64,000 nt of DNA. Origin: Desulfurobacteriaceae bacterium. GTDB lineage: Bacteria > Aquificota > Aquificia > Desulfurobacteriales > Desulfurobacteriaceae. The notes under the pieces are model-generated. The model was not told the origin of the DNA. It saw only the letters and a list, made by a program, of their open reading frames with translations, and did no database searches. The position numbers and the translations under genes are program-made. The stretch is taken from positions 90,050 to 154,049 of the forward strand of contig JAMORC010000005.1 in the NCBI GenBank assembly GCA_027063785.1. The letters are read 5' to 3'. Shown piece by piece: positions 36,630 to 55,662 of this stretch (the stretch's first letter is position 1; each line of letters opens with the position of its first letter).

Positions 36630-37684
36630 AGGTTTTTGTAAAGAAAGAACTTAAAGGATTTTCTTTGGATGTTTGCTTTGTTTCTGAAGCTAAAGCTGTT
36701 TCTCTTTTTGCTCCTTCGGGATCGGGAAAGAGCCTTACACTTCAAGCGATAGCTGGTTTGCTGAAGCCTGATAAGGGGAAGATAAAAGTTCTCGATAGGG
36801 TGTTTTTTGATTCAAGTAGAGGAATTTTCTTACCTCCGCAGCAGAGAAGAGTGGGTTATCTGTTCCAGGATTATGCTCTGTTTCCACATATGACGGTTTG
36901 GGAAAACGTTTTTTATGGTTGTAAAGATAAACAGCGAGTAGAAGAAGTTTTAAGAATGCTTGAAATTCAGGATATAAAAGATCGATTTCCGAAAGAAATT
37001 TCTGGGGGGCAGAAACAGAGAGTTGCTCTTGCAAGAGCTTTAGCTTTTGAACCTAAGGTTTTGCTTTTAGATGAACCTTTCTCCGCTCTTCATAAAAGTT
37101 TGAAGATGGATTTGTATGAAAGACTTGGAGAAGTTGTAAATAAGTTTCGCATTCCTATGGTTTTGGTAACTCATGATTTTGATGAAGTCCTTAAACTTAC
37201 TGATTATGTTGTAATTATGGAAAAGGGAAGAGTAAGACAAACAGGAAATCCGGAAAAGGTATTTTTAAATCCGATAGATGAGAAGATAGCTAAATTATTG
37301 GGGCATCGAACTTTCCTTCCAGGTAAGGTTGTTTCCGTAAGAGAAAGATGGGCGAAGGTGAAGTTAAGAAAAGGGCAACTTTTGGTAGCTAAAAACTTTC
37401 CAGAGGATTTAAGGGAAGGTGAGGATGTGATCATTTCTGTTTTACCGTTTGCTGTTGCATTTAATCCTTCAGAAGACTTTGTGAGAGTTTCTGCAACGGT
37501 TAAGGATATCTTTAAGGAGAAAGATAAAATTGTGGTGATTTTAGACTTAGGAAATGATGTAATTTTACATTTTCCGTTTTCTCTCTCTCCAAACTACATC
37601 CTAGAAAGAGGAAGGGAAGTGGATTTTTATCTTTCTCCTTCCTGTATTTCTGTTTTTAGGAGGAGGTATGAAGAGGAAGGTTAA
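36623..37684 (+). CDS. modC: molybdate ABC transporter ATP-binding protein with C-terminal MOP/TOBE domain
   Basis: Walker A APSGSGKS. Signature [16 protein letters not shown]-terminal beta-rich TOBE-like ~120 aa. Confidence 0.85.
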
Positions 37685-38690
37685 GGTTGAAAATGCTGTA
37701 GGAATGGTTCTTGTTCATGATGTTACAGAGGTTGACCTGGGGAGGAATTATAAGGGAAGGGCGTTTAAGAAGGGGCATGTAATAAGGCCTGAGGATGTTG
37801 AGAAGTTAAAAAGGCTCGGTAAGGACTACGTTTACGTCCTTGAGCTTTCTCCGGATGAGATCCACGAGGATGAAGCGGCTGTTCTCTTGGCGGAAGCCAT
37901 TATGGGGGAAAACACTTATAGGGATGAGGAGCCGAGAGAGGGGAAGATTAATATTTACTCTTCCGTTTTCGGAGTTGTAAAGGTTGATGTTGAAAAGCTC
38001 TTTCGATTTAACATGGTAGGGGAGCCTTCATGTCCGACTATTCATTCTGATATGTACGTAAAACCCGGTGAGAAGATTGCTGCTGTTCGGATTATTTCCC
38101 TTGTTGCTCCGAGGAAGGAGGTAAAAGAAGCTGTAAGGATTGCCGGTGACGGCATTGTCAGGGTTGTTCCCTTTGAGGAAAAAAGGGCTGGAATAATCAT
38201 TACGGGTAATGAGGTGTACTACGGGAGAATTGAAGATAAGTTCTATGAACGCCTGAAGCCAAAGCTTGAGTTTTTCAAGTGCCGAGTTGAGGAAAAAGTT
38301 GTTCTCCCCGATGATAAGGAGAGGATAAAACAGAAAATTCTCGAGTTTGCAAACCGGTACGATATTGTGGTTCTTACCGGCGGAACATCTGTTGATCCCG
38401 ATGACGTTACTTACAAGGCGGTTAGGGAAGCCGGGGTTAAGAACTTCATTAGGGGCAATCCCATTCAGCCCGGTAACATGCTGAGTATGGGCTGGCTCGG
38501 TAAAGTCCCCGTTGTTGCCGTCCCGGCCGCTGCTCTCTTCTTTAAAGCAACCTCTTTTGATATCTGGCTTCCGAGGCTTCTTATAGGGGATGTTATTACG
38601 AAGGAAGAAGTTGCCAGAAAGTCCCACGGGGGTCTCTGCCACGGCTGTTCCGTTTGTGTATTTCCAGTTTGTCCCTTTGGGAGGCCGTAA
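37668..38690 (+). CDS. MoeA-N-like + MogA/MoaB-like molybdopterin-binding (MoCF biosynthesis) domain protein with a C-terminal Cys cluster
   Basis: [10 protein letters not shown] resembles the MoeA N-terminal region. [15 protein letters not shown] is MoCF-biosynthesis-domain-like. C-terminal [15 protein letters not shown]. Stop overlaps the moeA ATG (TAATG). Confidence 0.55.
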
Positions 38691-39889
38691 TGAAAGTGAC
38701 CAGGGAGGAAGCTCTTAACGTAATTCTTTCTTCGGTTGATCCGGTAAAGGTTGAAGAGTCGGTAACTCTGGAAAAAGCTTACGGTAGAATCCTTGCTGTT
38801 GATATCTTTTCCCCCGTTGACCTGCCCGATGGAGACAAATCGGCAGTTGACGGCTTTGCCTTTAAGTCCTCCTCTGCTCCCGGCAGGTTTAAGGTAATCG
38901 GGGAATCGCCTGCTGGGAGGCCGGATAGGCTTGCAGTTTCGAATGGAGAAGCCGTTTTTGTAATGACCGGAGGTTTAATACCTGAAGGTGCAGACGCTGT
39001 TGTTAGGATTGAAGACGTTAGTTTTGATGGGAATTACGTTACTGTTGATTTCCCCGTTCGGGAAGGGAACCTTATAAACTATGCAGGCAGCGAGATTAAG
39101 GAGGGAGAGAGGGTTCTTAAAAAAGGGGACCTTCTCGATTTTCGGAAAGTTGGGTTGCTTGCCAACCTTGGAATATACAGGGTAAAAGTTTTCAGGAAGC
39201 CGAGAGTAGGTGTTTTAGTAACCGGGGATGAAGTTCTTGAACCCTTTGAACCCTATTTCCTAGGTAGTGTTAGGAACTCTAACTACTATATCCTAAAAGG
39301 TATTCTGGAAAGAATCGGGGTTTCTGTTATTTACCTCGGTAAGTCTTTCGATTCTGTCGATGAGATGGCTTCGGTTTTCGGTGAAGCACTTGAAGGAGTC
39401 GATGTTCTCGTTACTACCGGGGGCGTTTCAAAGGGAAAGTACGACTTTGTTAAAGAAGTTGTTGAAAGGGTCGGGTTTGACGTTAGGTTCACTACAACGA
39501 ACATAAGGCCGGGCAGACCTTTGGTCTTCGGCGTAAAGGGCAGTAATCTGTTCTTTGGCCTTCCCGGCTATCCGGCGGCGATGCTTGTCAATGCTTTAGA
39601 ATTTCTCGTTCCTGCCCTCCGAAAGCTTTCAGGGAGGAAGGAATTTTTTAACCGATACCTTCCCGCGGTTGCCCTTGAAGATCTAAAGTCGAGGGAAGGC
39701 AGGGTTGATTTCGTAAGGGTTAACCTTGAAGTTTTCGACGGAAGACTCGGAGTTGTCAACGCCGGAAGCCAGCAAACCTCTAACTTCCTCTCCATGGCAA
39801 TGTGTGACGGTTTGGCCGTTATAGGAGCTGACAGAGGAACGGTTAGGAAAGGAGAGTTTGTTGACCTGCTGCTTTTTGACAGGATATAG
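38690..39889 (+). CDS. moeA: molybdopterin molybdotransferase
   Basis: ATG 38690 after GGGAGG ([13 protein letters not shown]...). Motifs SAVDGFAF, VMTGGLIPEGADAV, VLVTTGGVSKGKYDFV. Confidence 0.85.
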   Translation: MKVTREEALNVILSSVDPVKVEESVTLEKAYGRILAVDIFSPVDLPDGDKSAVDGFAFKSSSAPGRFKVIGESPAGRPDRLAVSNGEAVFVMTGGLIPEGADAVVRIEDVSFDGNYVTVDFPVREGNLINYAGSEIKEGERVLKKGDLLDFRKVGLLANLGIYRVKVFRKPRVGVLVTGDEVLEPFEPYFLGSVRNSNYYILKGILERIGVSVIYLGKSFDSVDEMASVFGEALEGVDVLVTTGGVSKGKYDFVKEVVERVGFDVRFTTTNIRPGRPLVFGVKGSNLFFGLPGYPAAMLVNALEFLVPALRKLSGRKEFFNRYLPAVALEDLKSREGRVDFVRVNLEVFDGRLGVVNAGSQQTSNFLSMAMCDGLAVIGADRGTVRKGEFVDLLLFDRI

Positions 39890-39978: not shown

Positions 39979-40008
39979 TTGACAAGAGATTTTTTATTAT
40001 TGTAATAT
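39979..40008 (+). promoter_or_regulatory. candidate sigma70 promoter of the cytochrome/beta-barrel operon
   Basis: TTGACA (39979-84), 18-nt AT-rich spacer, TAATAT (40003-08) with TG just upstream, in the only AT-rich intergenic stretch (39890-40040). About 30 nt upstream of GTG 40041. Confidence 0.35.
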
Positions 40009-40040: not shown

Positions 40041-41306
40041 GTGGGGATAGATAAGAAGGCTCTGATGCTGGGAATGGGGATAGGACTCCTGGTAGCCGAT
40101 CCCGCCTTTTCTTCCGCCTCTATTCCTGCCTTCGAAGGGGAACTGAAGACGCAGGTTGAATTCAGAGAAGACATAAGGGATAGAGATTCCACTCCCTTTG
40201 ATACTTACCTGAAGTTGGATGTCAGGGATTTAAAAGGTAAGTCGGAACTTCACTTTTACGGAAAGCTCTGGAAGGATCTCGGAAGGGGAACTGATTGGGA
40301 TGCCGATCTCTTTCAACTCTACGTGGATACTCCGCTTAACAGAGAGTTTAAGCTATCTGTCGGTAGACAGTTCATATCCGAAGGCTTTGAAACTTACATT
40401 GCTGATGCTGTGAGACTAACTCGATCTTCGAAAAAGGGACTTCGCTACGTTTTCTATTTGGGTAAGCCGAGGTACTTTGAGCCGAACACGCGGAGCGGAG
40501 ATGACCTTTTAGCCGGTTTTAAGTTGGATTACAAAGGTTTCTTCTTGGGTTTTGAACATGTTAGGAAAAACGGAGATGTGAGGAAAAGTTCCTTCCTTTT
40601 CGGCGATTACAGGTATCTTACCAGGGAGCTTGCTCAGTATGCGAGACTTGAACTTGACGTTGCCCACGGAGAACTTCTTAGCTGGAACTTGGGAATTGAT
40701 TACTTCCCTACCAAGAAGTTAAGGCTTAACTCTGATCTGGAGTTTTACGACGGCAGTTATACCTATGGAGACGGAGTAAGGGAGAACGAGCTTTTCTATC
40801 TGTTCTCGAGCGGCAGGGAACTGCGATTTACTCAAAGCGTTTACTACGATTTAACGAAAGTCTGGCAGGTTTTTGGAAGCTACACGTTTACAGACCTTCA
40901 GAGGAAAGGTAAGGATAACGGTCATCTAATAAAGCTCGGACTTGTAAGGGATACTTGGTTTGATAACGGGCTGAGGAGCTACGGTTCTCTTCTTTATCAG
41001 AACAGTTGGTTTGGAATAATGAAGGGTTTTGAGGTCGGGTTTACGAAATACTTCTGCAGAAAACTCACCCTTACGGGAATGCTTGATGTTGCCCACTACG
41101 ACAAGATTACTTACGGAAGCCAGTGGTCGAATGCCCTTTACTTGAAAGGAACTTACGCAGTTACTGAGTTCTCGAACTTTGAGCTTGGAATCGACTACAG
41201 GAAGAATGAGGATTTTGATAGGGATGCCAGGGTAATACTCAGGTATAACTACCTCTTCTGGGGTGGAAGTTCATACAAAGAAAGGAGAGTCGAGGAAAGG
41301 AAATGA
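40041..41306 (+). CDS. secreted outer-membrane beta-barrel protein (porin-like), first gene of the multiheme cytochrome operon
   Basis: GTG start. Signal peptide MGIDKKALMLGMGIGLLVADPAFSSA. Alternating amphipathic beta-strand pattern, many Y/F/W. ~421 aa, no Cys motifs. Confidence 0.55.
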   Translation: MGIDKKALMLGMGIGLLVADPAFSSASIPAFEGELKTQVEFREDIRDRDSTPFDTYLKLDVRDLKGKSELHFYGKLWKDLGRGTDWDADLFQLYVDTPLNREFKLSVGRQFISEGFETYIADAVRLTRSSKKGLRYVFYLGKPRYFEPNTRSGDDLLAGFKLDYKGFFLGFEHVRKNGDVRKSSFLFGDYRYLTRELAQYARLELDVAHGELLSWNLGIDYFPTKKLRLNSDLEFYDGSYTYGDGVRENELFYLFSSGRELRFTQSVYYDLTKVWQVFGSYTFTDLQRKGKDNGHLIKLGLVRDTWFDNGLRSYGSLLYQNSWFGIMKGFEVGFTKYFCRKLTLTGMLDVAHYDKITYGSQWSNALYLKGTYAVTEFSNFELGIDYRKNEDFDRDARVILRYNYLFWGGSSYKERRVEERK

Positions 41307-41905
41307 GAGGAATTGCTGTTCTTTTGTTCTGTATAGCGGCCTTTTCCCTATTCTCCTGTGGTAAGGGAAATGTGAAGTATAAGGAGGAACTCGGCGCTAC
41401 GGCAAAGTTCCACCACAGGGATCATAAGGAATTTATCGATAGTCACGGCTGCATTCCGTGCCACAAAATGAACGTTGAAATGAGCTGGGCTGATATAGAG
41501 GCTGCAGAGAGGGGTTCAAAGAAAGTAATTATGCCTTCAAAAGTAACCTGCCATTACTGCCACAATAATCCGGGTAAGACGCCGGCTCCTAACGCTCCAA
41601 CAAAGTGTTACATATGTCACTTTAACATGAAAGAAATAGAGCCGGCCGACCATAAGACCGGGAACTGGCTGAAAACTCACAGGTTTGCCTATGAAGGGGA
41701 TCCCGAAAGGTGTGATGAGTGCCACAGACAGCGCTTCTGCATCGATTGCCATGCCAAGCGGGATGTTATCCAGCATTTCGTTCATCCGAGGAACTACGAT
41801 TATACCCACAGCATAGAGGCTGCTGCGGATCCTGCCAAGTGCGGCAGGTGTCACCGACCGGGTTTCTGTATGGAATGTCATACAAAGGGGATGTGGACGA
41901 GATGA
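41303..41905 (+). CDS. heptaheme c-type cytochrome lipoprotein (doubled-CxxCH type)
   Basis: ATGA overlap with the previous gene. Lipobox LFSC. 7 CxxCH (CIPCH, CHYCH, CYICH, CDECH, CIDCH, CGRCH, CMECH) in 200 aa. Confidence 0.8.
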   Translation: MRGIAVLLFCIAAFSLFSCGKGNVKYKEELGATAKFHHRDHKEFIDSHGCIPCHKMNVEMSWADIEAAERGSKKVIMPSKVTCHYCHNNPGKTPAPNAPTKCYICHFNMKEIEPADHKTGNWLKTHRFAYEGDPERCDECHRQRFCIDCHAKRDVIQHFVHPRNYDYTHSIEAAADPAKCGRCHRPGFCMECHTKGMWTR

Positions 41906-42774
41906 GAAAGGGAATGGCTTTACTTTTGTTCTTGGTTACCGGTTTGACGGTTAACTCTTACGGAAAAGAGTGCGGTGGAGTTGGCTATACCGGCAAGGAG
42001 GACGGCTTCTGCCTAAAATGTCACTCTTCCGGCTGCCCGATTGTTCACCCTCTTTCCTGTAAAGTTGAAGAGACCGATTGTATAAAGCTTCCTTCCCGAT
42101 TTCCCTTGAAAGACGGCAGGATGGCCTGTACCACATGTCATGATATGGCTTCAAAAAACCGCTATTTTCTGAGATCCAGAAAACCTATTAAAAAGAGGTT
42201 TGACTTCTGCTTCCAGTGCCACAATCCGGAATGCTATAGGAAGTTTAACCCTCACGAAGCGATAGGAAAAGATTTACCGTGGCAGGAGAAGAAGAAGGCC
42301 TGTATTTACTGTCACGGTGTCGGGGCAAGACTTGAGGCTTACAAGGCCTGTGTGGGGTGCCATACGGAAACTCCTCACGTCGGCGCTCCCGAGCATATGC
42401 TGGCTTCGGAAGATAAGGTTAAGAAGCTTACTGAGGGTAAGAAGGGAGTCTTTGAGATAAGTTCAATGAAAGAGCTGAAACCGAAGATTTCCCTGGAAGA
42501 GTTAAAAGGAAGGAAAGCGAAAGTGATACTCGTTAAAGGCAGGATAGAGTGTATAACCTGTCACAATCCTCATCCCCAGATAGCCTATGAAGCCGAAGCA
42601 CTTTCCGGAGATTGGGCAAAAGTGGTGTTGGGAGATATCGAGTATAAGCTTAAAAAGCTGGAACTTTCTCTTAACAGGTTTTCGGTTAATAAAGAAGCTG
42701 TCAAGCTTATGAGCCGGCCTGTGGAAGCCGGAAAACTGTGTACCGTTTGTCACTCTATTAATTCGTTGAAGTAG
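41902..42774 (+). CDS. heptaheme periplasmic c-type cytochrome
   Basis: ATG 41902 overlapping the previous stop (ATGA). Signal peptide MRKGMALLLFLVTGLTVNSYG. 7 CxxCH (CLKCH, CTTCH, CFQCH, CIYCH, CVGCH, CITCH, CTVCH). Confidence 0.8.
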   Translation: MRKGMALLLFLVTGLTVNSYGKECGGVGYTGKEDGFCLKCHSSGCPIVHPLSCKVEETDCIKLPSRFPLKDGRMACTTCHDMASKNRYFLRSRKPIKKRFDFCFQCHNPECYRKFNPHEAIGKDLPWQEKKKACIYCHGVGARLEAYKACVGCHTETPHVGAPEHMLASEDKVKKLTEGKKGVFEISSMKELKPKISLEELKGRKAKVILVKGRIECITCHNPHPQIAYEAEALSGDWAKVVLGDIEYKLKKLELSLNRFSVNKEAVKLMSRPVEAGKLCTVCHSINSLK

Positions 42775-42784
42775 GGGGTAGAGA

Positions 42785-43879
42785 GTGAAAGCCTTTATAG
42801 TTGGACTGACGGGAGCTTTCCTTCTGGCGGGAACTGCTCTTGGCGGCGGGATATCCGACGACGGGTGCTTGGTCTGTCATAGGCTTAAGGGACTTTCGGT
42901 CGTTGATGAGGATAATAGAGTAAGGGACTGTAGTATTAACGATGCCCTTTACGCTCACTCAATTCACAGAAATGTCGGTTGTACTGAGTGTCATGACAGA
43001 ATAGAACAGTATCCCCATAAACCTGAGAATGTGGCGGCAAACTGTGCAAATAAGTGTCACGTCGCTGATCCTTCGACGAAAAAGCCCTTTTCTCACGGGG
43101 AAGTTTTTAAAACGTGGAAGGAAAGCGTTCACGGTAAGAATTATGAGAAGGCTCCAGATATCTATCCTTACTGTAGCTACTGTCATACGAACGACCTCCT
43201 CATAGACGTTAAGAAATTTGAAGCCCTAGAGGGGAGCTTTGGCCGTTGTTCGATCTGCCATCAGAACAGAGAGTGGGCAGAAGACAGGCTGGCTCACGTT
43301 GCTTCAAGAGAACCTCTTCCGATTATAAAGAACGGTTTTGTCCACCAATTTATCAAGACAAGGAGGGACGGCTGGGAGATTGTTGAATTGTGTGCATCCT
43401 GTCATGAGGATGAAGAGAAGATGGAGAAAGCTATTGAGATAGAGGGTATTCACAATAAGTACGAAAAGGAAAGGATACTTACGGCCGTTGAGTCCTATAA
43501 GGTGACTATGCACTCAAAGATGCTGTACCTTGATAGGAATGATACGAGGGCTGCTGATTGTTTGGATTGTCATACCAACAAGGGAGGGAATTTCCACGAT
43601 ATATTCCATAAGAGTGATCCGAGATCTTCCGTTAACGTGAAGAACATAGAGTTGACCTGTGGCAGATCAACTGAATGTCATCCCCTTGCTCCTGCCAAGG
43701 ATATGAAGAATTTCGCCACTACTAAGTGGGTTCATATGCATCCGGTTCCGGATACTCTCGGTCAGAAGATAGTGAAAATTGTTGAGGAGTTTATGTTCTG
43801 GCTTACTACGGGAACGCTACTTTTTGCCGTTACAATTGTTGGACTTGACCTACTTAAAAACTTGAGGAGGAAGCACTAA
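42785..43879 (+). CDS. multiheme c-type cytochrome with C-terminal transmembrane anchor (partner of the downstream cytochrome b)
   Basis: GTG start after GGGGGT. Signal peptide. Six canonical CxxCH (CLVCH, CTECH, CSYCH, CSICH, CASCH, CLDCH) plus CANKCH (Cx3CH) and CGRSTECH. C-terminal helix FMFWLTTGTLLFAVTIVGLDLL. Confidence 0.8.
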   Translation: MKAFIVGLTGAFLLAGTALGGGISDDGCLVCHRLKGLSVVDEDNRVRDCSINDALYAHSIHRNVGCTECHDRIEQYPHKPENVAANCANKCHVADPSTKKPFSHGEVFKTWKESVHGKNYEKAPDIYPYCSYCHTNDLLIDVKKFEALEGSFGRCSICHQNREWAEDRLAHVASREPLPIIKNGFVHQFIKTRRDGWEIVELCASCHEDEEKMEKAIEIEGIHNKYEKERILTAVESYKVTMHSKMLYLDRNDTRAADCLDCHTNKGGNFHDIFHKSDPRSSVNVKNIELTCGRSTECHPLAPAKDMKNFATTKWVHMHPVPDTLGQKIVKIVEEFMFWLTTGTLLFAVTIVGLDLLKNLRRKH

Positions 43880-44811
43880 TGGGACTCTGGGAGGCATTTA
43901 AAGAGAGGTTTAGGATAAGGCCGGACCAGGATAAACTCCTTATCGTCGATGGAGAGAGAATTCTTATACAGAAATTTACTCTGTTCCAAAGGCTTCTTCA
44001 CGTTGGAATATTTTCCACCTTTATCTGGCAGATAATCACCGGATATCCCCTAAAGTTCTACAACACGGAGTGGGCTAAGCCGTTGATTGCTCTTCTCGGC
44101 GGAATTACCGGAGAAATGACCATTCACAGAATATCGGGATTTATAATGTTCGCCGACTTCCTCCTTACTGTTCTGTATATGATCCTTATACTTATAGCTA
44201 ACTGGGATCTTGCTAAAAAGGACTTTTTCGGGTATTTCAGAATCGTTCCCGGGCCTTCCGACGTAACTTTTGTTCATTATGTAAAGTACCTGCTCGGTTT
44301 CAGAAAAGTGCCTCCGGATTGGGACGAGTACATCTGGGTTGACAAGTTTGATTTCTGGGCGGTTGGTTGGGGTATGCTGGCCATTGGTATTACGGGATGG
44401 ATGCTTTGGCTTCCCGAAGTTTTTACCGGCTTTCTCCACCTTCCGCCGGAGACGATACAGATTGCTTACTTAATGCACTCGGATGAGGCTGTACTGGCGC
44501 TGGGTTGGATTGCCCTTGTTCACATGTACGTTGTTCACTACGGTCCCAATAAATTCCCTATGGACTGGATTTGGCTTACCGGAACGGCTTCAGAGGTTGA
44601 GTGGATAGAAGAGCGCCCCAGGAGTTACAGGAGGATTATCAAGGCTGTTGCTGAGAATGAACCCCATCTCCTCGAGAAGTACCCGTTCCTCAAGGAGCGT
44701 TATCAATTTGTCCTGGAGGTGGAAAAGCTTCCTGAGGAGGAGATGATAGAGAAGATGCACGAGTATGCCCATTACCTTCTTGAGAAGGAAGTGGAAGGGA
44801 GGAATGGATAA
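43879..44811 (+). CDS. integral-membrane b-type cytochrome (Ni/Fe-hydrogenase/formate dehydrogenase gamma / PhsC-like di-heme cytochrome b family), putative quinol-oxidising subunit
   Basis: TAATG overlap with the previous gene. 4-5 TM helices with conserved His (LLHVGIFSTF, IHRISGF, LVHMYVVHYG). Confidence 0.65.
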   Translation: MGLWEAFKERFRIRPDQDKLLIVDGERILIQKFTLFQRLLHVGIFSTFIWQIITGYPLKFYNTEWAKPLIALLGGITGEMTIHRISGFIMFADFLLTVLYMILILIANWDLAKKDFFGYFRIVPGPSDVTFVHYVKYLLGFRKVPPDWDEYIWVDKFDFWAVGWGMLAIGITGWMLWLPEVFTGFLHLPPETIQIAYLMHSDEAVLALGWIALVHMYVVHYGPNKFPMDWIWLTGTASEVEWIEERPRSYRRIIKAVAENEPHLLEKYPFLKERYQFVLEVEKLPEEEMIEKMHEYAHYLLEKEVEGRNG

Positions 44812-45524
44812 TGAAGAGGTTGATCCTTGCTCTTTTCGTTCTGCCGATAGCCGTTCAGGGAGCTGAGAACCCGCTTCTCTCCGCTCCTGCCAAGGACATT
44901 TCTAAATGGGAGAATAAACTGAAGGAGTTTGAAAGACCGGAGCTGCCCAGGAAGGAAGGTTATCCGAGGCCGTTTCACTTGCCTAACGGCTATAAGTACT
45001 CCCTTGATGATGTCTGTTTGGCCTGTCACACCTTTGCTGCCCATAAGAAGGATAAGAAGTACGCTCCTTTTTACAACGCCCACGGAACCTTCTTGAGCTG
45101 CACAACGTGCCATTTTGTTAAATCCGGTCTCTCGTACAGCTGGGTTGAAATCGATGGTGATAGAGCCGTTGGAAAGGAAGGAGGAGATTTTTACGGTCTT
45201 CGTTATATAAGGAACGGTAATAGGGTTATCCTTTCCGGAGGAGATAGCAGAGCAAGGATAACTCCTGTTTATGATGGAGCTCCTCTTGTTATCCCTCTTA
45301 AAGGTAATGAGTCTCTTCTGAAAGACGTTAAGGCCGTTTCAAAGATGCACTCTGCTCTTACTGAGAAGGTTTTGAAGTGTGAGGATTGCCACAGGGAGAA
45401 AGGTGTTCTTGACTTTCGCGCTTTAGGTTTTAGTGATGAAAGGGTAAAGGATCTTGAGGAAAACGAGGTAGTGAAAGGATTAAAAGAGTATAAGACGATT
45501 CACTTCCCCAAATTTATCTGGTAA
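44811..45524 (+). CDS. triheme periplasmic c-type cytochrome
   Basis: TAATG overlap. Signal peptide MKRLILALFVLPIAVQGA. CLACH, CTTCH, CEDCH. Confidence 0.75.
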   Translation: MKRLILALFVLPIAVQGAENPLLSAPAKDISKWENKLKEFERPELPRKEGYPRPFHLPNGYKYSLDDVCLACHTFAAHKKDKKYAPFYNAHGTFLSCTTCHFVKSGLSYSWVEIDGDRAVGKEGGDFYGLRYIRNGNRVILSGGDSRARITPVYDGAPLVIPLKGNESLLKDVKAVSKMHSALTEKVLKCEDCHREKGVLDFRALGFSDERVKDLEENEVVKGLKEYKTIHFPKFIW

Positions 45525-45535
45525 GGGGTCAGAGA

Positions 45536-46339
45536 ATGAGGTTTATAGTTGCTGCTTTGCTTGCGATCCTGTTTTCCGTAAGAGCTGTAGCGGGAGAGGT
45601 TATAAAAGGTGACTGGAAGTTTCCTTCGGATATTGCAGTTAGTAACGGCAAACTTTACGTTGTTGACGGGCTGAACAACAGGATTGCCGTTTACGACTTG
45701 TACGGGGAGCACCTTATTGACCTTAAGGTTGATTCTCCTTACGGGATATTCGTTGATAACGGATTGGTATATGCCGTCAGTCAGAAGGGAAGACTTTACG
45801 TCCTTGATGAGTACGGGGAGCTTCTGAAGAGCTTCCCGCTGAAAGGACGGCCTATTGATGTTGTTAAGTTAAAAGACAGACTTTTCGTTAGCAACGGTGA
45901 AGGAAATACGGTGGATGTCTATACCCTTGACGGAAAGCTTGTTAAGAGGATCGGCGGAAAGGGGACTGTTCCTGGTAACTTTGTCGGTGTATTTCTGATG
46001 GACAGGGGGAAAAATCTTATTTATGTTGTTGATTCTGTTAACGCCAGGATTCAGGAGTTTGATGAGGACGGCAGGTTTGTCAGATCATTCGGGGTTTTCG
46101 GTATAGAGGAAGGGGATCTCTTCAGGCCTAAAGGGATTGCAGTCTGTAATGGTTACGTTGCTGTAAGTGACGGTATTACCGGAGCTGTTCAGCTTTTTGA
46201 TCCTTACGGCGGATTTGAGAACGTGATTGCTGAAGGTCTTTACTACCCTACAGCCCTTAGCTGCTATGACGGAGAGGTTTTTGTCCTTGAACCTCTGAAG
46301 AACAGAGTTTCTACATTTAGACTTCGGGGAGTCAAGTAA
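45536..46339 (+). CDS. secreted NHL-repeat beta-propeller protein
   Basis: Signal peptide MRFIVAALLAILFSVRAVAG. Repeated Y(V/A)VD..N.RI..(F/Y)D..G blades (LYVVDGLNNRIAVYDLYGE, YVVDSVNARIQEFDEDGRF, etc.). Confidence 0.75.
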   Translation: MRFIVAALLAILFSVRAVAGEVIKGDWKFPSDIAVSNGKLYVVDGLNNRIAVYDLYGEHLIDLKVDSPYGIFVDNGLVYAVSQKGRLYVLDEYGELLKSFPLKGRPIDVVKLKDRLFVSNGEGNTVDVYTLDGKLVKRIGGKGTVPGNFVGVFLMDRGKNLIYVVDSVNARIQEFDEDGRFVRSFGVFGIEEGDLFRPKGIAVCNGYVAVSDGITGAVQLFDPYGGFENVIAEGLYYPTALSCYDGEVFVLEPLKNRVSTFRLRGVK

Positions 46340-49011
46340 TGAGGAAATCGTTACTGGTTCTTTTAACGGTTCTTGTTTTGCCCGGTGTTTCTGAAGCGAA
46401 GTTGAAAAAGAGTATGAAGAAGGAGTGCCTTGTTTGTCACCAGAACTGGCTCCTTGAGTCGAAGATTAAGTCCCCGACTCTTTTAACCAAGAATTCTTTT
46501 CAGGCTGCTGACAAGTTGATGTGCCTTTCCTGTCACGACGGCTCAATGGCTGACGATAGGCTTACGTTTCTGGGTTTTGATCATTTTTCCCATCCGGTTG
46601 ATAAGGAGGTTCCAGAGGACTTTAAAATGCCTGAGGGCTTCCCGCTGAAGGACGGGAAGCTTTACTGTGGAACTTGTCACACTCCTCATACTGAGACGGG
46701 AAGTGAGAAAAAGCTTGACTACACGTTTATGAGGAAGCCTAACGTTAATTCGGCCCTCTGTATTGAATGCCACAAGGATAACGCAGAGCACGATCTCAAC
46801 CACCCACTTCTCGAGGAAACCGAAGGAAAGCTTTCGCTGGATGAATCCCTGAGAATAAGGAAGCTTGGGGGAAAGGTTACGATTTCTGGAGAGGTTCAGT
46901 GCGAATCGTGTCACTCTTCCCACAAGGGAAGGGCGAAGAAGGCTCTTATAGAGGGGTTTGAGAAATCCCAACTCTGTATTCTCTGTCACAAAGAAAACCT
47001 GAACAGCAAGAAACATCCCAACTGGCGCAACCATCCCATTCACAAGAAATTTCCGAAAGGTGCTCGGGTTTCCTTCTTTGAAAGTAAAAAGGCGGTTACC
47101 GAATCGGTCGAGTGTATGACCTGTCACAGGGTTCACAAAGAGGAGAATAAGCATTTAGTTGTTGCAAAAGAAGAAAAGCTGTGCTCCCTCTGCCACGTTA
47201 AAGAGAGGAAGGTTGAGAGCACCGATCACAACATAGCCGGTAAATCCTGTAAGAGCTGTCATGTGCCTCACGAGGCGAAAGCTCCCAAGCTTTGGGGCAG
47301 GAAGATTCCGGAAGAGGCTTTTGAGTATGCCTCTTTAATAGGAGCTAAAGGGAAAGAGGATATTCTCTGCCTTTCCTGTCACTATCCTCAGCATAAGGTG
47401 AACGGTAAAGAAGTTAAGACTGTCGGTGTTCTTACGCATCCGACGGGGAAAGTTGTTAAAGAAAAGATTGAACTGCCCCTTACCGGTAAAAGGTTAAGCT
47501 GTATCACTTGCCACGATCCCCATCATGCTTACGACGACAGCCCGAAAGGAAAGTTCTTGAGGAAAGAGAGACTGGAACTTTGTTACACATGTCACAAGGA
47601 AGAGGCCGATGTTAGGAAAGGGCCTCACGGTAAGGTAGACGAGAGGAGATGGAAGAAAGGGGACTGTGCTGCGTGCCACAGCGTGCATAACGCCAAGGAC
47701 GGTTACCTGTCCAGGGTAGTTTACGGCGAAATTTCCCCTATGGAGCCGCCGGTTGACGGTTTCTGCCTGGCTTGCCATGACCCTGAAGGGATGGCGGAGC
47801 ATAAGGTTAAACAGTCTGTATTTAATGAACACCCTGTTGGGGTGAGGAATCCGAGTGAGGAGCTGCCCGGGAAGAAAATTTCCTGTGCAACCTGCCACGA
47901 TCCCCATACTCATAAAGAGGAGCTTCTGAGGCTACCCGTGAAGGGGGATTCGAAGCTCTGTATGACCTGCCATATTGATCAGGATCTTAAGGGAAGTTCC
48001 CATAACCTTTTAACTAACCCGGAAGTCAACTTCCCCGATAAGGAAAAGAAGAGACTCAAGGAAAAGGGAATCTGTTCTGTTTGCCATACTCCTCACAATC
48101 CAGAGTTTAAGGTTCTTTGGAGCAGGAAGCCCGGAAAAGGGAATACGATAGGCGAAAAGTTGTGTAACAGCTGTCACTCGAAAGGAGGTCTTGCAGAGGA
48201 GAAGACTGTAGGTAAGCATTCTCACCCGATCGGCAGGGAGGTTACCGATAAGAACTTAGAGGTTATAGAGCGTTCAAGGCTTCCTCTGATTAATCAGATG
48301 ACAGGTCATCCTGTAAAAAGAGGAGAAGTGGGAGTCTTTGACTGTATGACCTGTCATGAGCCCCACAACGGTGCAGATAGGGAAAGGCTTACCAGATATA
48401 CCGTTAAAGGGGACAGTGCTCTCTGTACCTCCTGCCACACCGAGGAGGCCAAGGTAATTGGAACGGATCACGATATGAGGGTTGTTAATAAGGACTTTAA
48501 GAACCTGATGGGTAAGAGCGTCCTTGAGTCTGGAGTGTGTTCTTCCTGTCACGTGCCTCACAGGGCTTTTGATGAGAAGCTGTGGGCTATGAAGGTAGAA
48601 GAGGTTACTGATAACAGAGCTTCCAATTACTGCCTGACTTGCCATAAGGAAAACGGTATCGGGCAGGATAAGGTTGTTAAATATTACTACCATCCGAAGA
48701 AGGATGTTATAGTTAGAAACCTCGACAGGCCGGGCAGGGCCGGAGATTGGCCTATTTTTGATAGCAGGGGTAAAAAGGTTTCTGTTGGCGGAGAGATAGC
48801 CTGTGAAACCTGTCATGATCCTCATGTCTGGAGCAAGTGGAGTGATAAAGTTCCGGGTAAACCGACGGAGGGTAACGCTCTTAATAGCTTCTTAAGGAAT
48901 AAGGATTTAAGGGGAAGTATCTGTGTTGACTGCCACGGCCTCGATGCTCTTTACAGGTATAAGCTCTTCCACACCGAGAAGGTTCACCAAGAGAAACCCT
49001 CTTACAAGTAA
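46339..49011 (+). CDS. 24-heme c-type cytochrome (890 aa), secreted
   Basis: TAATG overlap with the NHL gene. Signal peptide MRKSLLVLLTVLVLPGVSEA. 24 CxxCH motifs, many as CxxCHxPH (e.g. CGTCHTPH, CITCHDPH, CETCHDPH). Confidence 0.85.
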   Translation: MRKSLLVLLTVLVLPGVSEAKLKKSMKKECLVCHQNWLLESKIKSPTLLTKNSFQAADKLMCLSCHDGSMADDRLTFLGFDHFSHPVDKEVPEDFKMPEGFPLKDGKLYCGTCHTPHTETGSEKKLDYTFMRKPNVNSALCIECHKDNAEHDLNHPLLEETEGKLSLDESLRIRKLGGKVTISGEVQCESCHSSHKGRAKKALIEGFEKSQLCILCHKENLNSKKHPNWRNHPIHKKFPKGARVSFFESKKAVTESVECMTCHRVHKEENKHLVVAKEEKLCSLCHVKERKVESTDHNIAGKSCKSCHVPHEAKAPKLWGRKIPEEAFEYASLIGAKGKEDILCLSCHYPQHKVNGKEVKTVGVLTHPTGKVVKEKIELPLTGKRLSCITCHDPHHAYDDSPKGKFLRKERLELCYTCHKEEADVRKGPHGKVDERRWKKGDCAACHSVHNAKDGYLSRVVYGEISPMEPPVDGFCLACHDPEGMAEHKVKQSVFNEHPVGVRNPSEELPGKKISCATCHDPHTHKEELLRLPVKGDSKLCMTCHIDQDLKGSSHNLLTNPEVNFPDKEKKRLKEKGICSVCHTPHNPEFKVLWSRKPGKGNTIGEKLCNSCHSKGGLAEEKTVGKHSHPIGREVTDKNLEVIERSRLPLINQMTGHPVKRGEVGVFDCMTCHEPHNGADRERLTRYTVKGDSALCTSCHTEEAKVIGTDHDMRVVNKDFKNLMGKSVLESGVCSSCHVPHRAFDEKLWAMKVEEVTDNRASNYCLTCHKENGIGQDKVVKYYYHPKKDVIVRNLDRPGRAGDWPIFDSRGKKVSVGGEIACETCHDPHVWSKWSDKVPGKPTEGNALNSFLRNKDLRGSICVDCHGLDALYRYKLFHTEKVHQEKPSYK

Positions 49012-49029: not shown

Positions 49030-49179
49030 ATGGCCAGGGAAGTTAGTTCAAGGGATATAGAGAAAGAGGCCTGGATAGTTCTTGCGGCCGTCCTGTGTAT
49101 CCTTCTCCTTCCGATACTCGGAGTTTGGTTTGTTAAGTTCGTCCACTGGTACTCCCACTCCATCTTTATGTGGCTCTAA
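49030..49179 (+). CDS. unannotated small membrane protein (49 aa) immediately after the 24-heme cytochrome
   Basis: Strong RBS GAGGAGGAAAGG 6 nt before ATG 49030. Single TM (WIVLAAVLCILLLPILGVWFV). Below the ORF-track size cut-off. Confidence 0.35.
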   Translation: MAREVSSRDIEKEAWIVLAAVLCILLLPILGVWFVKFVHWYSHSIFMWL

Positions 49180-52091: not shown

Positions 52092-53098
52092 GGCTTAACA
52101 GAGAAGAGATGGCTGAACTTATAGAGGGACTTGAAGGAAGAATTCTTATAACGACCCATAAAAATCCGGATGGGGATGCTGTTGGAAGTTCTTTAGCCTG
52201 GTACAACTTCCTCAAAAAGTTGGATAAGGACGTAACGGTTATTTACCGGGATAGAATTCCCTACTTCTTCGACTTCCTTCCCGGTGTCTACGATGTAAAG
52301 GTTCTTCAGGAGATAAAGGATAAGTTTGACTGGGTAATTATTACTGACGTTTCTGATCCGAAAAGGACGGGGTTTGATGCAATCCCTGCCGAAAAGTCGA
52401 TAGTTATTGATCACCACGTAACGGCGGAACCTTTTACGGATTATTCCATTGTAGAGCCGGAAATTTCAAGTACTTGTGAGCTTTCCTACTACCTGATGAA
52501 GCTGATAAATGCTGATTTTATAGACATTTCCGTAGCCCTACCCATCTATACGGGAATCTACACGGATACGGGGAGCTTCAGCTACAGTAATACTTCTCCC
52601 GAGACATTTGAAGTTGCGGCTGAGCTTGTAAGGAAAGGAGTTAATCCTTACTTTGTAATGTCCAACATCTTTGAAAGGAACAGGCTTAACAAGTTTAAAC
52701 TGCTTGAACTTGTCCTTAGAACGCTTTCCTTTGCCCTCGGTGGAAAGGTTGCCCATATAACCCTTTTCAGGAGCTTTTTAGAGGAGACGGGAGCTTACCC
52801 GGAAGAATCAGAAGGTTTTATAAACTATCCCCGTTCAATAGCCGGGGTTGAAGTTGCCGTTTTCTTTAAGGAAATTGAAAAGGGAAGCTGGAAAGTTTCC
52901 CTCCGCTCAAAAGGTAAAGTTGACGTCGCTTCAGTTGCGAAGCGGCTCGGCGGCGGCGGACACAGGATGGCGGCAGGCTTTGAAGCTGAAGGGGAATTAA
53001 CGGAGATAAAGGAAAGGCTATTTAAGGAACTTGAGGTTGCCCTGGAAGACGCTTACTACGAAGGTCTTTCTCAGAAGGGAAATCCGAAAGAAATGTGA
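52088..53098 (+). CDS. nrnA: DHH/DHHA1 phosphoesterase, NrnA-type oligoribonuclease / pAp phosphatase
   Basis: DHH motifs HKNPDGDAVGS and DHH at ~100. DHHA1 GGGGHRMAAGF. Confidence 0.8.
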   Translation: MRLNREEMAELIEGLEGRILITTHKNPDGDAVGSSLAWYNFLKKLDKDVTVIYRDRIPYFFDFLPGVYDVKVLQEIKDKFDWVIITDVSDPKRTGFDAIPAEKSIVIDHHVTAEPFTDYSIVEPEISSTCELSYYLMKLINADFIDISVALPIYTGIYTDTGSFSYSNTSPETFEVAAELVRKGVNPYFVMSNIFERNRLNKFKLLELVLRTLSFALGGKVAHITLFRSFLEETGAYPEESEGFINYPRSIAGVEVAVFFKEIEKGSWKVSLRSKGKVDVASVAKRLGGGGHRMAAGFEAEGELTEIKERLFKELEVALEDAYYEGLSQKGNPKEM

Positions 53099-55662
53099 AC
53101 CCTTCCTCTTCCCTGCCCCGGTACGCTCTTCAGCTTATACCCGTAGTCAAGCCTTAGTGGACCGACGGGTGTAAGGTACCTGATTCCCATACCTACGGAG
53201 GAGTACCAGCCGCCCAGTTTAAACTCTTGAGGCCTTCTAAAGACGTTTCCCGAATCGTAGAAGACGGCCAGCTGAAGGTTCTTCCGGATATCCTGTCTTA
53301 ACTCAAGGCTCACCAGTCCGTAAGCTTCCCCTCCTATGAAGTTTCCTTTTTCGTCTGTCGGTGAAATAGTTCCGTACTTGTATCCCCTGACGCTTTCCGC
53401 ACCGCCCAGGAAAAACCTGTCCTGAATGGGGACTCCCCTGTTTCCTATCTTCTGAACTACTCCTCCGTGAAGCCGGACGGCAATTGTCCTCTTTTCCGTC
53501 AGCGGAACAAGGTATAGGAACTTTTCTTCAAGTTTATAAAAGTCGGTGTTTCCGCCTAAGAGAAATCCGGCCACCGAAAATTTCAGCTCCGCCAACCATC
53601 CCTTCCTGGGGTTGGTACTGGAATCCCGCCTGTCGTAGGTTTGTATTAGGTTGACGTTTCTCTTCAGGAAATGCCTTTCGGTTTTTATGTTCGTGTCCTT
53701 TACCTTTTCCCTGGAGACCTGAAATTGGAACTCTTGGGTAAAATTTTTGGAGGCTTTCCTTTTTAAGGAAAAGGTGTACAGCGTCTTATCTGTTTTAAAG
53801 CTTTCAAAAATCTGTTCTTTCTTGACTATTGAGTAAGACGTGTCGTAGTGCCTTTTCGGGAATGCAGGTTTCATTGCCTTAAACACGGCATCGTAGCCCT
53901 CTTTCTGCCTGTAGTTTCCGAATAGGAAGAATTTCATCCCCAGTCCGAAAGGCGAACTTGAGGAAATGAAACCGTTGGAAACTATACCGCTGTCCGTTCC
54001 GTATCCGAGGAATCCCCTTACGCTTAAGTAAGGGCCTTCCGACAGTTCTATTACCTCGTTGATACAGCTTGCGGACTTTACATCCCTTACTGTTATTGAA
54101 GAGAAAAGCCTGCTGTCCGTTAGCCTGGAGTACTGGTTTAGAACTTTCTCTTTTGAATAAATTTCCCCCGGTTGTAGAAAGAATAGGTTTTTTATCCATT
54201 TGATATCTGTCCTTTTCAGACCTCTTACCACTACATAGCCGAATCGGTATTGTTTCCCCGGATTTACATTGATTCTTAATAGCACTTCTACGCGGTCGGG
54301 TAATTCTTTCTTTTCTTCTTTTATGTCGATTTTTACGTCGGGATACCCTTTAGTTCCGTAGCAGTCGGCCAGAAGTCCGGATATTTCCTGCTTTACCTCA
54401 GGCTTGTAGATCACGGGGAGCTTAAAATGGCTTTTTTTGAAGCATAGCTCTTTGTCACCTGTAACTTCTATTCCTGTTAGGATGGACTGCTTTCCTTTCT
54501 TAACGGCGATTTTGACGGAAGAACCGGAAACGCTGTAGGAAATCTCCGGATTGAGAAAGCCGTTTTTCTTTAGTTTTGCTTTTATTAGATTTAGAAGCTC
54601 TGTAATTTTTTCCAGTGAAAACGGTCTATTGATAATGAGTTTTTTGAGGTCTTTGATATCCTCGTCTTCTTTAAATCCCGAGATGGAAACCTGCTTTACG
54701 ATAACTTTTGGCCCTTCATTTATGATGAAAACCAGTTCGACAGTGTTTTCTTTGTTTACTTCTTTTACCTTCACTTTTACAAAGGGGAATCCGTTGTTGC
54801 GATAAAACTTCTCTATTTCTCTCCTTGAATTTTCTATTTCAAACTCATCTACCGAGCGGTTTTTCTTGAAGGTGAGTAGTTCGTGGAGTTTTTTATCTTT
54901 AAAAGATTTGTTACCGGAAAACTTTATTAGGTAGCGCTTACCCGGTTCAACTTTTATCAGTATCTTTACCGGTTTCCAGCGGAGAATAGAGAATTTTTTT
55001 CTTCTGATTGGGATTATTGAGATTTTTACCTCGCCGTTGTAGTATCCTTTTTCTATTAACGTGTTTTCAAGCTTTTCCCTGATTTTTTCGAGAAGTTCAA
55101 CATCTAAAGGTTTTCCTGTCAACTTTTCCGTTTCTTTTTCAAAATTTTTCCTGAACCCGGAGGGGCAGATAAGCTCTACTTTCTCGATTTTTGACTGTTC
55201 TCCCAGTTCAAGTTTGAGTTTTACAAAATATCCGCATCCCCTTTTAATTTTTTCCGCTTTTACGCTTGCCCTGCTGTAACCCACGGCCTTGAGCCGTAGC
55301 TCTACCATCTTAACAGCGCTTTTTATAAGCCTGTCATTTAGTTTCCTTCCTGTAAGCATTACCTTAACGGCTTTTAACGTTTCCTCTATGGCCGGAACGG
55401 GATTTTCCACAATCACTTCTTCAATTTTCTGGTAGTCCTTTACCAGGAGCTTCCCCTTTTCCTCTTCAACCTCGTAGCCCAAGGACTCCAGAAGATCCTC
55501 TGCTGCTTTGAAGCAGTCAGAGAAACGGCAGACCGATTCCGATTCCTTTTCAATCTGCTCCTTTAAGCTCTTGTCGAAGCAAACGCCTTCCTCTACTTTA
55601 AGCTCGAAGGATTCTGCCGGAACCCACAGGAGAATGAGGAAAAGGAGTATTATTAACCGCAA
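53071..55662 (-). CDS. bamA: outer membrane protein assembly factor BamA
   Basis: Signal peptide. Multiple POTRA repeats. C-terminal 16-strand barrel ending ...HISFGFPF. 863 aa. Confidence 0.85.
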   Translation of the reverse strand: MRLIILLFLILLWVPAESFELKVEEGVCFDKSLKEQIEKESESVCRFSDCFKAAEDLLESLGYEVEEEKGKLLVKDYQKIEEVIVENPVPAIEETLKAVKVMLTGRKLNDRLIKSAVKMVELRLKAVGYSRASVKAEKIKRGCGYFVKLKLELGEQSKIEKVELICPSGFRKNFEKETEKLTGKPLDVELLEKIREKLENTLIEKGYYNGEVKISIIPIRRKKFSILRWKPVKILIKVEPGKRYLIKFSGNKSFKDKKLHELLTFKKNRSVDEFEIENSRREIEKFYRNNGFPFVKVKVKEVNKENTVELVFIINEGPKVIVKQVSISGFKEDEDIKDLKKLIINRPFSLEKITELLNLIKAKLKKNGFLNPEISYSVSGSSVKIAVKKGKQSILTGIEVTGDKELCFKKSHFKLPVIYKPEVKQEISGLLADCYGTKGYPDVKIDIKEEKKELPDRVEVLLRINVNPGKQYRFGYVVVRGLKRTDIKWIKNLFFLQPGEIYSKEKVLNQYSRLTDSRLFSSITVRDVKSASCINEVIELSEGPYLSVRGFLGYGTDSGIVSNGFISSSSPFGLGMKFFLFGNYRQKEGYDAVFKAMKPAFPKRHYDTSYSIVKKEQIFESFKTDKTLYTFSLKRKASKNFTQEFQFQVSREKVKDTNIKTERHFLKRNVNLIQTYDRRDSSTNPRKGWLAELKFSVAGFLLGGNTDFYKLEEKFLYLVPLTEKRTIAVRLHGGVVQKIGNRGVPIQDRFFLGGAESVRGYKYGTISPTDEKGNFIGGEAYGLVSLELRQDIRKNLQLAVFYDSGNVFRRPQEFKLGGWYSSVGMGIRYLTPVGPLRLDYGYKLKSVPGQGRGRVHISFGFPF

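Follow-up and report, generated by a model that had tools for sequence, protein, structure and literature searches.

Which part a cytochrome with 24 hemes plays at the end of an operon, and on which side of the outer membrane it works, is the question raised by a 64,000-nucleotide stretch of DNA from a Desulfurobacteriaceae bacterium (Aquificota; GenBank assembly GCA_027063785.1, contig JAMORC010000005.1, positions 90,050 to 154,049 of the forward strand; the whole stretch is called the window below). The cytochromes OmcS, OmcE and OmcZ form extracellular polymers without covalent links, and it is an open question in what way these filaments are initiated, ended and mounted. The 24-heme protein belongs, as judged from its sequence, to the known multiheme electron wires, the fused OmcE-unit architecture being the new part: six tetraheme units of the OmcE type are joined head to tail in a single chain, which probably acts as a self-terminated periplasmic wire of ~18 nm leading from a quinol oxidoreductase to an outer-membrane conduit.

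Heme motifs, export signal and family

46339..49011, plus strand: 24-heme cytochrome, 890 amino acids (aa); open reading frame call and motif count.
46339..46398, plus strand: signal peptide, residues 1-20, MRKSLLVLLTVLVLPGVSEA; read from the sequence.

The 890-aa product with 24 CxxCH motifs, as given by the original prediction, was recovered by the open reading frame (ORF) call and by a regular-expression count: exactly 24 motifs were found, all 48 Cys being used, with start residues 30, 62, 110, 141, 188, 213, 259, 282, 304, 344, 388 and 415 (motifs 1-12) and 443, 476, 516, 541, 579, 609, 669, 696, 734, 765, 822 and 862 (motifs 13-24); neither CxxCK nor CX3-4CH was detected by a motif scan of the 890-aa protein. 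The chain contains 59 His and carries one heme per 37 aa. CxxCHxxH was found in 11 of the 24 motifs, and eight of those 11 are CxxCHxPH, the recurring unit that had been pointed out earlier. Since 2000 composition shuffles of this Cys/His-rich protein gave 0.16 CxxCH motifs on average and never more than 3, the count of 24 is far above chance. Three antisense ORFs inside 46339-49011 were all without support.

The N-terminus, MRKSLLVLLTVLVLPGVSEA followed by KLKK (…PGVSEA/KLKK), shows the n/h/c organisation of a type-I signal peptide, positions -3 and -1 being occupied by small residues, in agreement with the cleavable signal predicted for it; a lipobox was not seen when the N-terminus was read for one. 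Pfam models matched nine doubled-CXXCH stretches (E 3e-62), and the matches to Cytochrome_C7 overlap these stretches. The AlphaFold2 (AF2) model of the protein (mean pLDDT 78.8, pTM 0.61) consists mainly of loops and short helices.

In public records the protein is named just 'cytochrome c3 family protein'. Its closest homologs (59-75% identity) were found in Thermovibrio, Phorcysia and Desulfurobacteriaceae metagenome-assembled genomes (MAGs), and at 50% identity the family falls into at least 313 clusters with E<=1e-30 (605 with E<=1e-10). The heme count, which had been taken to be rare, is the commonest one among the 120 nearest homologs: 24 hemes in 65 of them, then 22 hemes in 22 and 28 hemes in 15. 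Among the best 150 representatives, the number of hemes is divisible by four in 81, with peaks at 20, 24, 28 and 16; over the family 20 and 24 hemes are the modal counts.

Tetraheme units and the OmcE register

46399..46773, plus strand: OmcE-like unit I, residues 21-145, hemes 30/62/110/141; OmcE register, without N-terminal donor His.
46774..47196, plus strand: unit II, residues 146-286, hemes 188/213/259/282; OmcE register.
47197..47595, plus strand: unit III, residues 287-419, hemes 304/344/388/415; OmcE register.
47596..47973, plus strand: unit IV, residues 420-545, hemes 443/476/516/541; OmcE register.
47974..48438, plus strand: unit V, residues 546-700, hemes 579/609/669/696; OmcE register.
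48439..48936, plus strand: unit VI, residues 701-866, hemes 734/765/822/862; region best aligned to OmcE.
48937..49008, plus strand: C-terminal tail of 24 aa with the invariant His878 (codon 48970-48972), a putative capping ligand.

A search with the family profile gave the solved OmcE subunits as top matches (9yuq, 6e-13; 7tfs, 5.5e-11). In residue-level alignments the OmcE order of landmarks is T/K-H-D, CxxCHxPH…LW.R, C(L/M)SCH, CxxCHxxH…FL and a terminal LCxxCH; when this register was laid on the 24-heme protein, six tetraheme units and a tail of 24 aa were obtained, all landmarks being aligned. The tetraheme core, that is, four CxxCH and four distal His in OmcE order, is present. A repeat parse of 2 + 5 x 4 + 2 hemes was also tried and dropped for the 6 x 4 register, because OmcE chains stop directly after the fourth CxxCH and the unit ends of the 6 x 4 register coincide with these chain ends. 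The protein is thus read, from these alignments, as six head-to-tail fused tetraheme units of the OmcE type.

Axial ligands

46426..46449, plus strand: heme-1 motif C30-L-V-C-H34-Q-N-W37, Trp in place of the second His; one missing distal ligand.

Ligand conservation was followed by aligning 65 homologs, each with 24 hemes and together representing several phyla. Every one of the 48 Cys is invariant, and so are 47 His; these His comprise 24 proximal and 23 distal ligands, the latter being 11 of CxxCHxxH, 6 of HP type after the second heme of each unit (85, 232, 367, 498, 629, 785) and 6 of HD type, 10-11 residues past the last heme motif of each unit (155, 297, 430, 555, 711, 878). No Met is invariant in this alignment.

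In OmcE and OmcS filaments a His of the neighbouring subunit completes a heme, and a filament 'stopper' would need one extra His (Petersen et al.). By analogy with OmcE, the inter-subunit His would here have turned into a linker residue between units. His878 looks like a built-in stopper or putative capping ligand, because it is placed exactly where the donor 'HD' His of a next unit would fall (11 residues from CxxCH to His878, against 10-11 at the internal junctions). Unit I, at the opposite end, has no donor His, and the chain therefore cannot extend another chain. The single missing distal ligand belongs to heme 1: Trp37, invariant in 65 of 65 sequences, occupies the position of the second His of the other B-type motifs, and Met61, conserved in 55 of 65 (85%), is the sole nearby candidate ligand. 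A spare invariant His, Met or Cys was sought in alignments of the two neighbouring gene products described below, the NHL propeller and the triheme, and none was found in either.

The donor-less end together with the capping His can serve as a natural model of how filaments terminate and of what the propellers do. It is also of interest that the OmcE block is fused in this family into chains of fixed length (4-7 units), an NHL propeller being always encoded beside them; this suggests that the heme wires of the periplasm and the extracellular nanowires are linked in evolution.

Operon in the window

40041..41306, plus strand: outer-membrane beta-barrel, 421 aa, secreted, ~22 strands, the candidate porin-like part of a Pcc-type conduit.
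41303..41905, plus strand: lipoprotein heptaheme, 200 aa, candidate outer-membrane or cell-surface cytochrome; seven CxxCH, lipobox LFSC (Cys19).
41902..42774, plus strand: secreted heptaheme, 290 aa, doubled-CXXCH, candidate barrel-inserted periplasmic cytochrome (OmaB/MtrA-like role).
42785..43879, plus strand: CbcA-like octaheme, 364 aa, 6 CX2CH + CX3CH + CX5CH, C-terminal transmembrane (TM) helix 336-354.
43879..44811, plus strand: membrane cytochrome b, 310 aa, Ni_hydr_CYTB/FdnI type, putative quinol/quinone site; PF01292, E 2.4e-13.
44811..45524, plus strand: triheme (h3), 237 aa, cytochrome b complex subunit; three CxxCH and invariant H56, H78, H91.
45536..46339, plus strand: NHL-repeat six-bladed beta-propeller, 267 aa, secreted; PF01436, PF17170.
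39979..40008, plus strand: promoter-like site TTGACA-18-TAATAT, 10/12, in the 151-nt gap upstream of the first gene; consensus match only.
49109..49123, plus strand: terminator-like hairpin and T-run downstream of the operon; consensus match only.

Eight genes of the same strand were found, with junctions of -4, -4, +10, -1, -1, +11 and -1 nt, the 24-heme gene being the last; its start ATG overlaps the NHL stop by 1 nt, and housekeeping genes follow downstream (dCMP deaminase, ThyX, PmbA, RbfA and others), so that the earlier description of it as the last coupled gene of the operon holds. Promoter-like sites are no more numerous in the region than in shuffles. The whole operon is syntenic in 11 Desulfurobacteriaceae loci, and its base composition gives no sign of recent transfer, the G+C content (0.464) being equal to that of the window (0.463).

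The 421-aa barrel protein gave no family match in a scan with family models; its lumen is usher- or TonB-receptor-sized, and the barrel family was found only in Desulfurobacteriaceae, Desulfurobacterium thermolithotrophum included. The gene of the lipoprotein heptaheme shares an ATGA overlap with the barrel gene. For the 290-aa heptaheme, Paired_CXXCH_1 matched with E 5.6e-10, and the DmsE and GSU2203 decaheme models stayed below cutoff; its start was moved from 41719 to the ATG at 41902 (ATGA overlap with the previous stop, followed by a signal peptide), the ORF 41719-42774 being too long, with its first 61 codons overlapping the lipoprotein heptaheme gene in another frame.

All eight heme motifs of the CbcA-like octaheme are invariant in 10 homologs from 4 phyla; in the same set 7 invariant distal His were counted against 8 heme motifs, and this deficit of one ligand matches that of the 24-heme protein. 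The cytochrome b, the most conserved gene product of the operon (up to 93% identity among relatives), has the invariant residues H41, H83, H200, H215 and H220 (HX14H and two single His). In the NHL propeller neither a lipobox nor an invariant His, Met or Cys was found.

Directly upstream of the operon (34373-39889) lie a Mo/W uptake set (ModA-like binding protein, permease, ModD-like protein, ATPase) and two MoeA-type genes, and in seven related loci the barrel gene still has a MoeA gene upstream. Such a neighbour could hint at a molybdo- or tungsto-enzyme partner encoded elsewhere, e.g., a polysulfide or thiosulfate reductase.

The module in other lineages

The neighbourhoods of distant homologs of the 24-heme protein (27-48% identity) were examined. 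In every locus, and in at least 4 phyla, the NHL gene stands immediately upstream of the giant multiheme cytochrome (MHC), and the pair was found next to CbcA-like, cytochrome b and h3 genes in Aquificota (window, L001-L011, L019), Desulfobacterota (L018, L023), Gammaproteobacteria/Pseudomonadota (L020, L013), a Schekmanbacteria MAG (L021) and two unclassified contigs (L022, L024). In L019, from the cultured Desulfurobacterium sp. TC5-1, a c7-like cytochrome is followed by the CbcA-like protein, cytochrome b, h3, NHL and then a 24-heme protein; a barrel and a lipoprotein cytochrome were absent within 10 kb. The gene order is the same in the gammaproteobacterial (L020) and Pseudomonadota (L013) MAGs; in the Schekmanbacteria MAG and the similar contig L024, CbcA-like, h3 and NHL genes are followed by the giant MHC.

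An unclassified contig (L022, 7378-8976) and a Deltaproteobacteria MAG (L023, 7384-8952) each encode cytochrome b and the triheme as a single fusion protein (522-532 aa), h3 being situated at the C-terminus of cytochrome b; this fusion (Rosetta stone) shows the two to be subunits of one complex. In the Desulfobacterales MAG (L018) the h3-like, NHL and giant MHC genes adjoin three pairs of a CbcA-like gene and a following cytochrome b gene (L018, 1-7530, minus strand); two of these three pairs are later followed by a triheme-like gene, and such pairs are also multiple per locus in L020 (1220-4880, minus strand). Stand-alone CbcA-like/cytochrome b/h3 triplets recur in both loci. A duplicated, modular family of quinol oxidoreductases is suggested, in which NHL and the giant MHC are paired with only one of the copies.

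No barrel was found within 10 kb in eight loci (L013, L018-L024). The 427-aa proteins of L021 and L024, considered as porins, were ruled out as TPR proteins, and the porin suspects of L013 are actually further MHCs, a YncE-like propeller and a peptidyl-prolyl isomerase (PPIase). The NHL propellers are without lipobox in 7 of 8 cases. The constant partner of NHL and the giant MHC is the inner-membrane CbcA-like/cytochrome b/triheme unit. The barrel module is a lineage-specific addition. The five-gene module (CbcA-like octaheme, cytochrome b, triheme, NHL, giant cytochrome; at least 4 phyla) may be of use as a marker of a widespread pathway by which electrons leave or enter the cell. Literature on this module or on an OmcE-concatemer architecture was not found in the library at hand, which is incomplete, so that this is absence of evidence only.

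Beside the module, L013 (8436-16678, minus strand) contains three more doubled-CXXCH cytochromes (one with 13 stretches in 657 aa), the YncE-like propeller, which is seven-bladed, and the SurA-like PPIase, a set that recalls the Uet cluster of Ca. Tenderia. In L021 (14190-18625) and L024 (8441-12920) the giant cytochrome is followed downstream by a NosD-like beta-helix, a NapC/NirT-type cytochrome and the 427-aa TPR protein.

Proposed electron path and rival explanations

With the heme count, unit architecture, OmcE and MtrA homology, ligand conservation, barrel fold, operon and cross-phylum module in hand, we infer the periplasmic location of the 24-heme protein, its docking partners, flow direction, physiological acceptor and actual length as follows. 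Six OmcE-type tetraheme units in one polypeptide would form a closed heme wire, in which the 'HD' His of the linkers complete hemes between fused units and His878 completes the last unit; with this cap, no partner would be needed at the C-terminal end. After Sec export and heme attachment the protein would stay in the periplasm and, together with the co-translated NHL propeller, dock on an inner-membrane quinol:cytochrome c oxidoreductase composed of cytochrome b, the membrane-anchored CbcA-like octaheme and the triheme, the electrons passing from menaquinol to the b hemes, then to the octaheme and triheme, and then to the 24 hemes. The axial rise of OmcE is ~29-31 Å per subunit (Petersen et al. 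2025), and for six units a wire of ~6 x 30 Å = ~18 nm would result, near the width of the periplasm, for which an average of ~170 Å is quoted. In Desulfurobacteriaceae the wire would deliver to the heptaheme in the 22-strand barrel, this one to the surface lipoprotein heptaheme, and the latter to an acceptor that is insoluble or lies outside the cell (S0/polysulfide or a metal oxide); reverse flow is equally possible. The periplasmic location is favoured because the outer-membrane roles are already filled by the barrel, the lipoprotein heptaheme and the periplasmic heptaheme, and the link to the inner membrane because NHL and the giant MHC adjoin the CbcA-like/cytochrome b/h3 genes across phyla. 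Since the main genome study on Desulfurobacteriaceae left the pathways of sulfur and nitrite reduction unresolved and is silent on c-type cytochromes, this 47-49-heme trans-envelope operon is a concrete candidate for respiration with insoluble acceptors at hydrothermal vents.

Several points weigh against this account. OmcE itself is extracellular and has a type-I signal peptide, and OmcE clusters contain NHL/beta-propellers, an MtoA-like MHC, a quinol-oxidising cytochrome and a large barrel, the same parts list as this operon holds. The continuity of the heme chain and its end-to-end length are extrapolated from OmcE, and the heme served by each 'HD' His is assigned by analogy. The AF2 confidence is <50 over most of residues 14-130, the proposed docking end. 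In the family 16-28 hemes are common and up to 48 occur, and the D. thermolithotrophum ortholog has 28, for which ~21 nm would be expected; with the number of hemes so variable, the length is no strict ruler. A search with the cytochrome b returned 0 Geobacter entries (19 close relatives only), and in Desulfovibrio ferrophilus deletion of NHL-associated cytochrome clusters left Fe(III) oxide reduction unimpaired.

The nanowire-like character and the extracellular or terminal position of the original prediction have to be separated: the former is backed by the homology of the units to OmcE, and the latter is retained as a rival to the preferred periplasmic wire. According to this rival, a fused nanowire would be exported, mounted on or through the 22-strand barrel with the help of NHL, in the manner proposed for OmcE filaments, and extended ~18 nm outward as terminal electron donor or acceptor; such chains may, in addition, join end to end into polymers. 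The units share homology with the subunit of an extracellular nanowire, OmcE, OmcS and OmcZ likewise use plain Sec signal peptides, and the operon has a barrel with a lumen of suitable class (usher or TonB receptor). OmcE clusters always have beta-propellers, two MHCs and a large barrel, OmcE homologs have been reported in Aquificota, and the propellers of Geoalkalibacter are NHL proteins encoded beside MtoA-like and quinol-oxidising cytochromes. A 27-heme wire of Desulfuromonadia, a possible member of the same family as the 24-heme protein, was predicted to be extracellular; and the one heme of unit I without an intrachain ligand could in principle take a His of another molecule. We nevertheless regard export as unlikely, for the barrel family was found only in Desulfurobacteriaceae and is missing within 10 kb of the pair in the eight other loci, TC5-1 among them, while the inner-membrane unit accompanies the pair throughout; the NHL proteins, unlike the propellers of OmcE clusters, mostly have no lipobox; the operon already has a surface lipoprotein cytochrome and a barrel-sized heptaheme; and the missing N-terminal donor His together with the chain's own C-terminal cap argues against polymerisation of the OmcE style. 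A bolder variant, which we hold to be still less likely, makes the protein a single-chain counterpart of OmcE, possibly its evolutionary source or derivative, with its length set genetically, its open N-terminal heme (CxxCHxxW) completed by a partner, and NHL and the barrel mounting it on or through the outer membrane. If this were true, deep-branching thermophiles would carry a covalently fused nanowire wired directly to a quinol oxidoreductase, for respiration of S0 or minerals or for electron uptake from conductive chimney walls.

Storage instead of conduction would be the function of a periplasmic capacitor, holding up to 24 electrons near the inner-membrane oxidoreductase and buffering an intermittent external acceptor. 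The high heme density, the similar role suggested for large PCC3 cytochromes, the fact that most family members have no outer-membrane partner encoded nearby and the difference in length between lineages are in line with it; the linear OmcE/MtrA-type chain with insulated hemes and defined ends, however, has the geometry of a wire, and its strict pairing with both propeller and membrane complex points to a fixed assembly. As a separate function it seems to us improbable, and since storage and conduction are compatible it is a shift of emphasis rather than a distinct mechanism. Most improbable of all is a terminal reductase, in which the CxxCHxxW heme of the N-terminal unit would be five-coordinate and bind polysulfide, sulfite or nitrite, the other 23 hemes feeding it. 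One distal ligand is indeed missing, with the invariant Trp instead and Met61 just 85% conserved; the enzymes of sulfur and nitrite reduction of Thermovibrio ammonificans are unresolved; and weak profile matches to NrfA, MccA and ONR were obtained. The catalytic signature is absent, though: an ortholog of a known multiheme reductase had been named earlier as the case to be checked, and when the protein was compared with NrfA, MccA, HAO/ONR and Otr, no catalytic heme motif or domain was found (CxxCK, active-site Tyr/Cys, homology at family level).

Comparison with known systems

OmcE (Geobacter sulfurreducens, 7TFS; D. soudanensis, 9YUQ) is a subunit of ~200-230 aa that forms a non-covalent extracellular polymer via inter-subunit His-heme ligation. 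The 24-heme protein differs from it as one 890-aa chain of six units with a donor-less N-terminus and the capping His878, so that the single-subunit polymerising architecture was not found here; the loci differ as well, the propeller not being a lipoprotein and, in most phyla, no barrel standing beside the gene. MtrA/DmsE/MtoA (Mtr complex, 6R2Q chain A) carries its 10 hemes within a sheath formed by the 26-strand MtrB. Membership of the 24-heme protein in this group was rejected (TIGR03508, 146.5 bits against a cutoff of 192.2, spread over six separate stretches; 24 hemes), and the MtrA-like role in the operon belongs more plausibly to the 290-aa heptaheme. Of the earlier assignment to doubled-CxxCH/c7-type cytochromes, the doubled-CXXCH part is kept in view of the nine Pfam stretches; the c7-type polymers (GSU1996/GSU0592/GSU2210) were set aside, as TIGR04257 (nanowire_3heme) gave no match at E<=0.01 and the repeat is tetraheme, without invariant Met. 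A '24-heme' protein of Geoalkalibacter, considered as a relative, proved to be a different protein with FN3 domains.

Geobacter CbcBA (Cbc5) is an inner-membrane electron exit shown genetically. The likeness to it is one of architecture only: in both, the gene of a diheme cytochrome b with four helices directly follows that of a multiheme c protein which has a TM helix at its C-terminus. The c subunit has 8 heme motifs here against 7 in Geobacter CbcA, and the triheme and NHL propeller are extra. The cbc5 region of Geobacter encodes the 12-heme polymer cytochrome GSU0592 as well. In the Uet cluster of Ca. Tenderia and the clusters of D. ferrophilus IS5, the propeller was proposed to be a scaffold or stabiliser; NHL propellers are found there, as here, beside doubled-CXXCH cytochromes, trihemes and a barrel. 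UetJ has 11 hemes, however, the trihemes are of c7 type, and a cytochrome b/CbcA-like unit is not described for these clusters.

PCC3 cytochromes (He et al. 2017, PMC5566968; Gallionellaceae cluster 20, PMC10734462) have 21-27 hemes, few aa per heme and internal repeats; they are predicted to reside in the periplasm and to have the length needed to cross it, and their genes occur together with those of a porin, a surface MHC and a b-type protein of the inner membrane (PMC5566968, PMC10734462). By description, the 24-heme protein is like them in its 24 hemes, 37 aa per heme, repeats and Sec signal without lipobox. The inner-membrane protein of PCC3 clusters is unannotated, with 5 TM helices and two WX3HX13H motifs; its counterpart here is a cytochrome b of the PF01292 type with HX14H and two single His, and the anchored octaheme, triheme and NHL propeller are present, which PCC3 clusters are without. 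The composition of a PCC3 cluster was not found throughout the family, as a porin and a lipoprotein MHC accompany the 24-heme gene in Desulfurobacteriaceae only. Names from Gallionellaceae or Leptothrix did not occur among the matches of the homolog search.

Group III pcc clusters have been described from T. ammonificans and D. thermolithotrophum, extracellular S0 reduction being suggested (Shi, Fredrickson and Zachara 2014, PMC4245776). Their Theam_0871/Dester_0351 is a cytoplasmic-membrane cytochrome with six CX2CH and two atypical motifs (PMC4245776); the octaheme of the window fits this description exactly, and the operon qualifies as a group III pcc cluster. The cytochrome b, triheme, NHL and giant cytochrome are not discussed in PMC4245776, and the 24-heme gene lies outside the pcc definition. 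In the genome/proteome paper on T. ammonificans, c-type cytochromes and heme are unmentioned and sulfur and nitrite reduction are left unresolved. Electroactivity or metal reduction in Desulfurobacteriaceae did not turn up in the literature searched.

Elsewhere in the window, and unrelated to the cytochrome operon, a BcrAD/BadFG-type activase with DUF2229 (1062 aa, 19499-22687, minus strand) and a BamA/Omp85 homolog (53071-55662, minus strand) are encoded.

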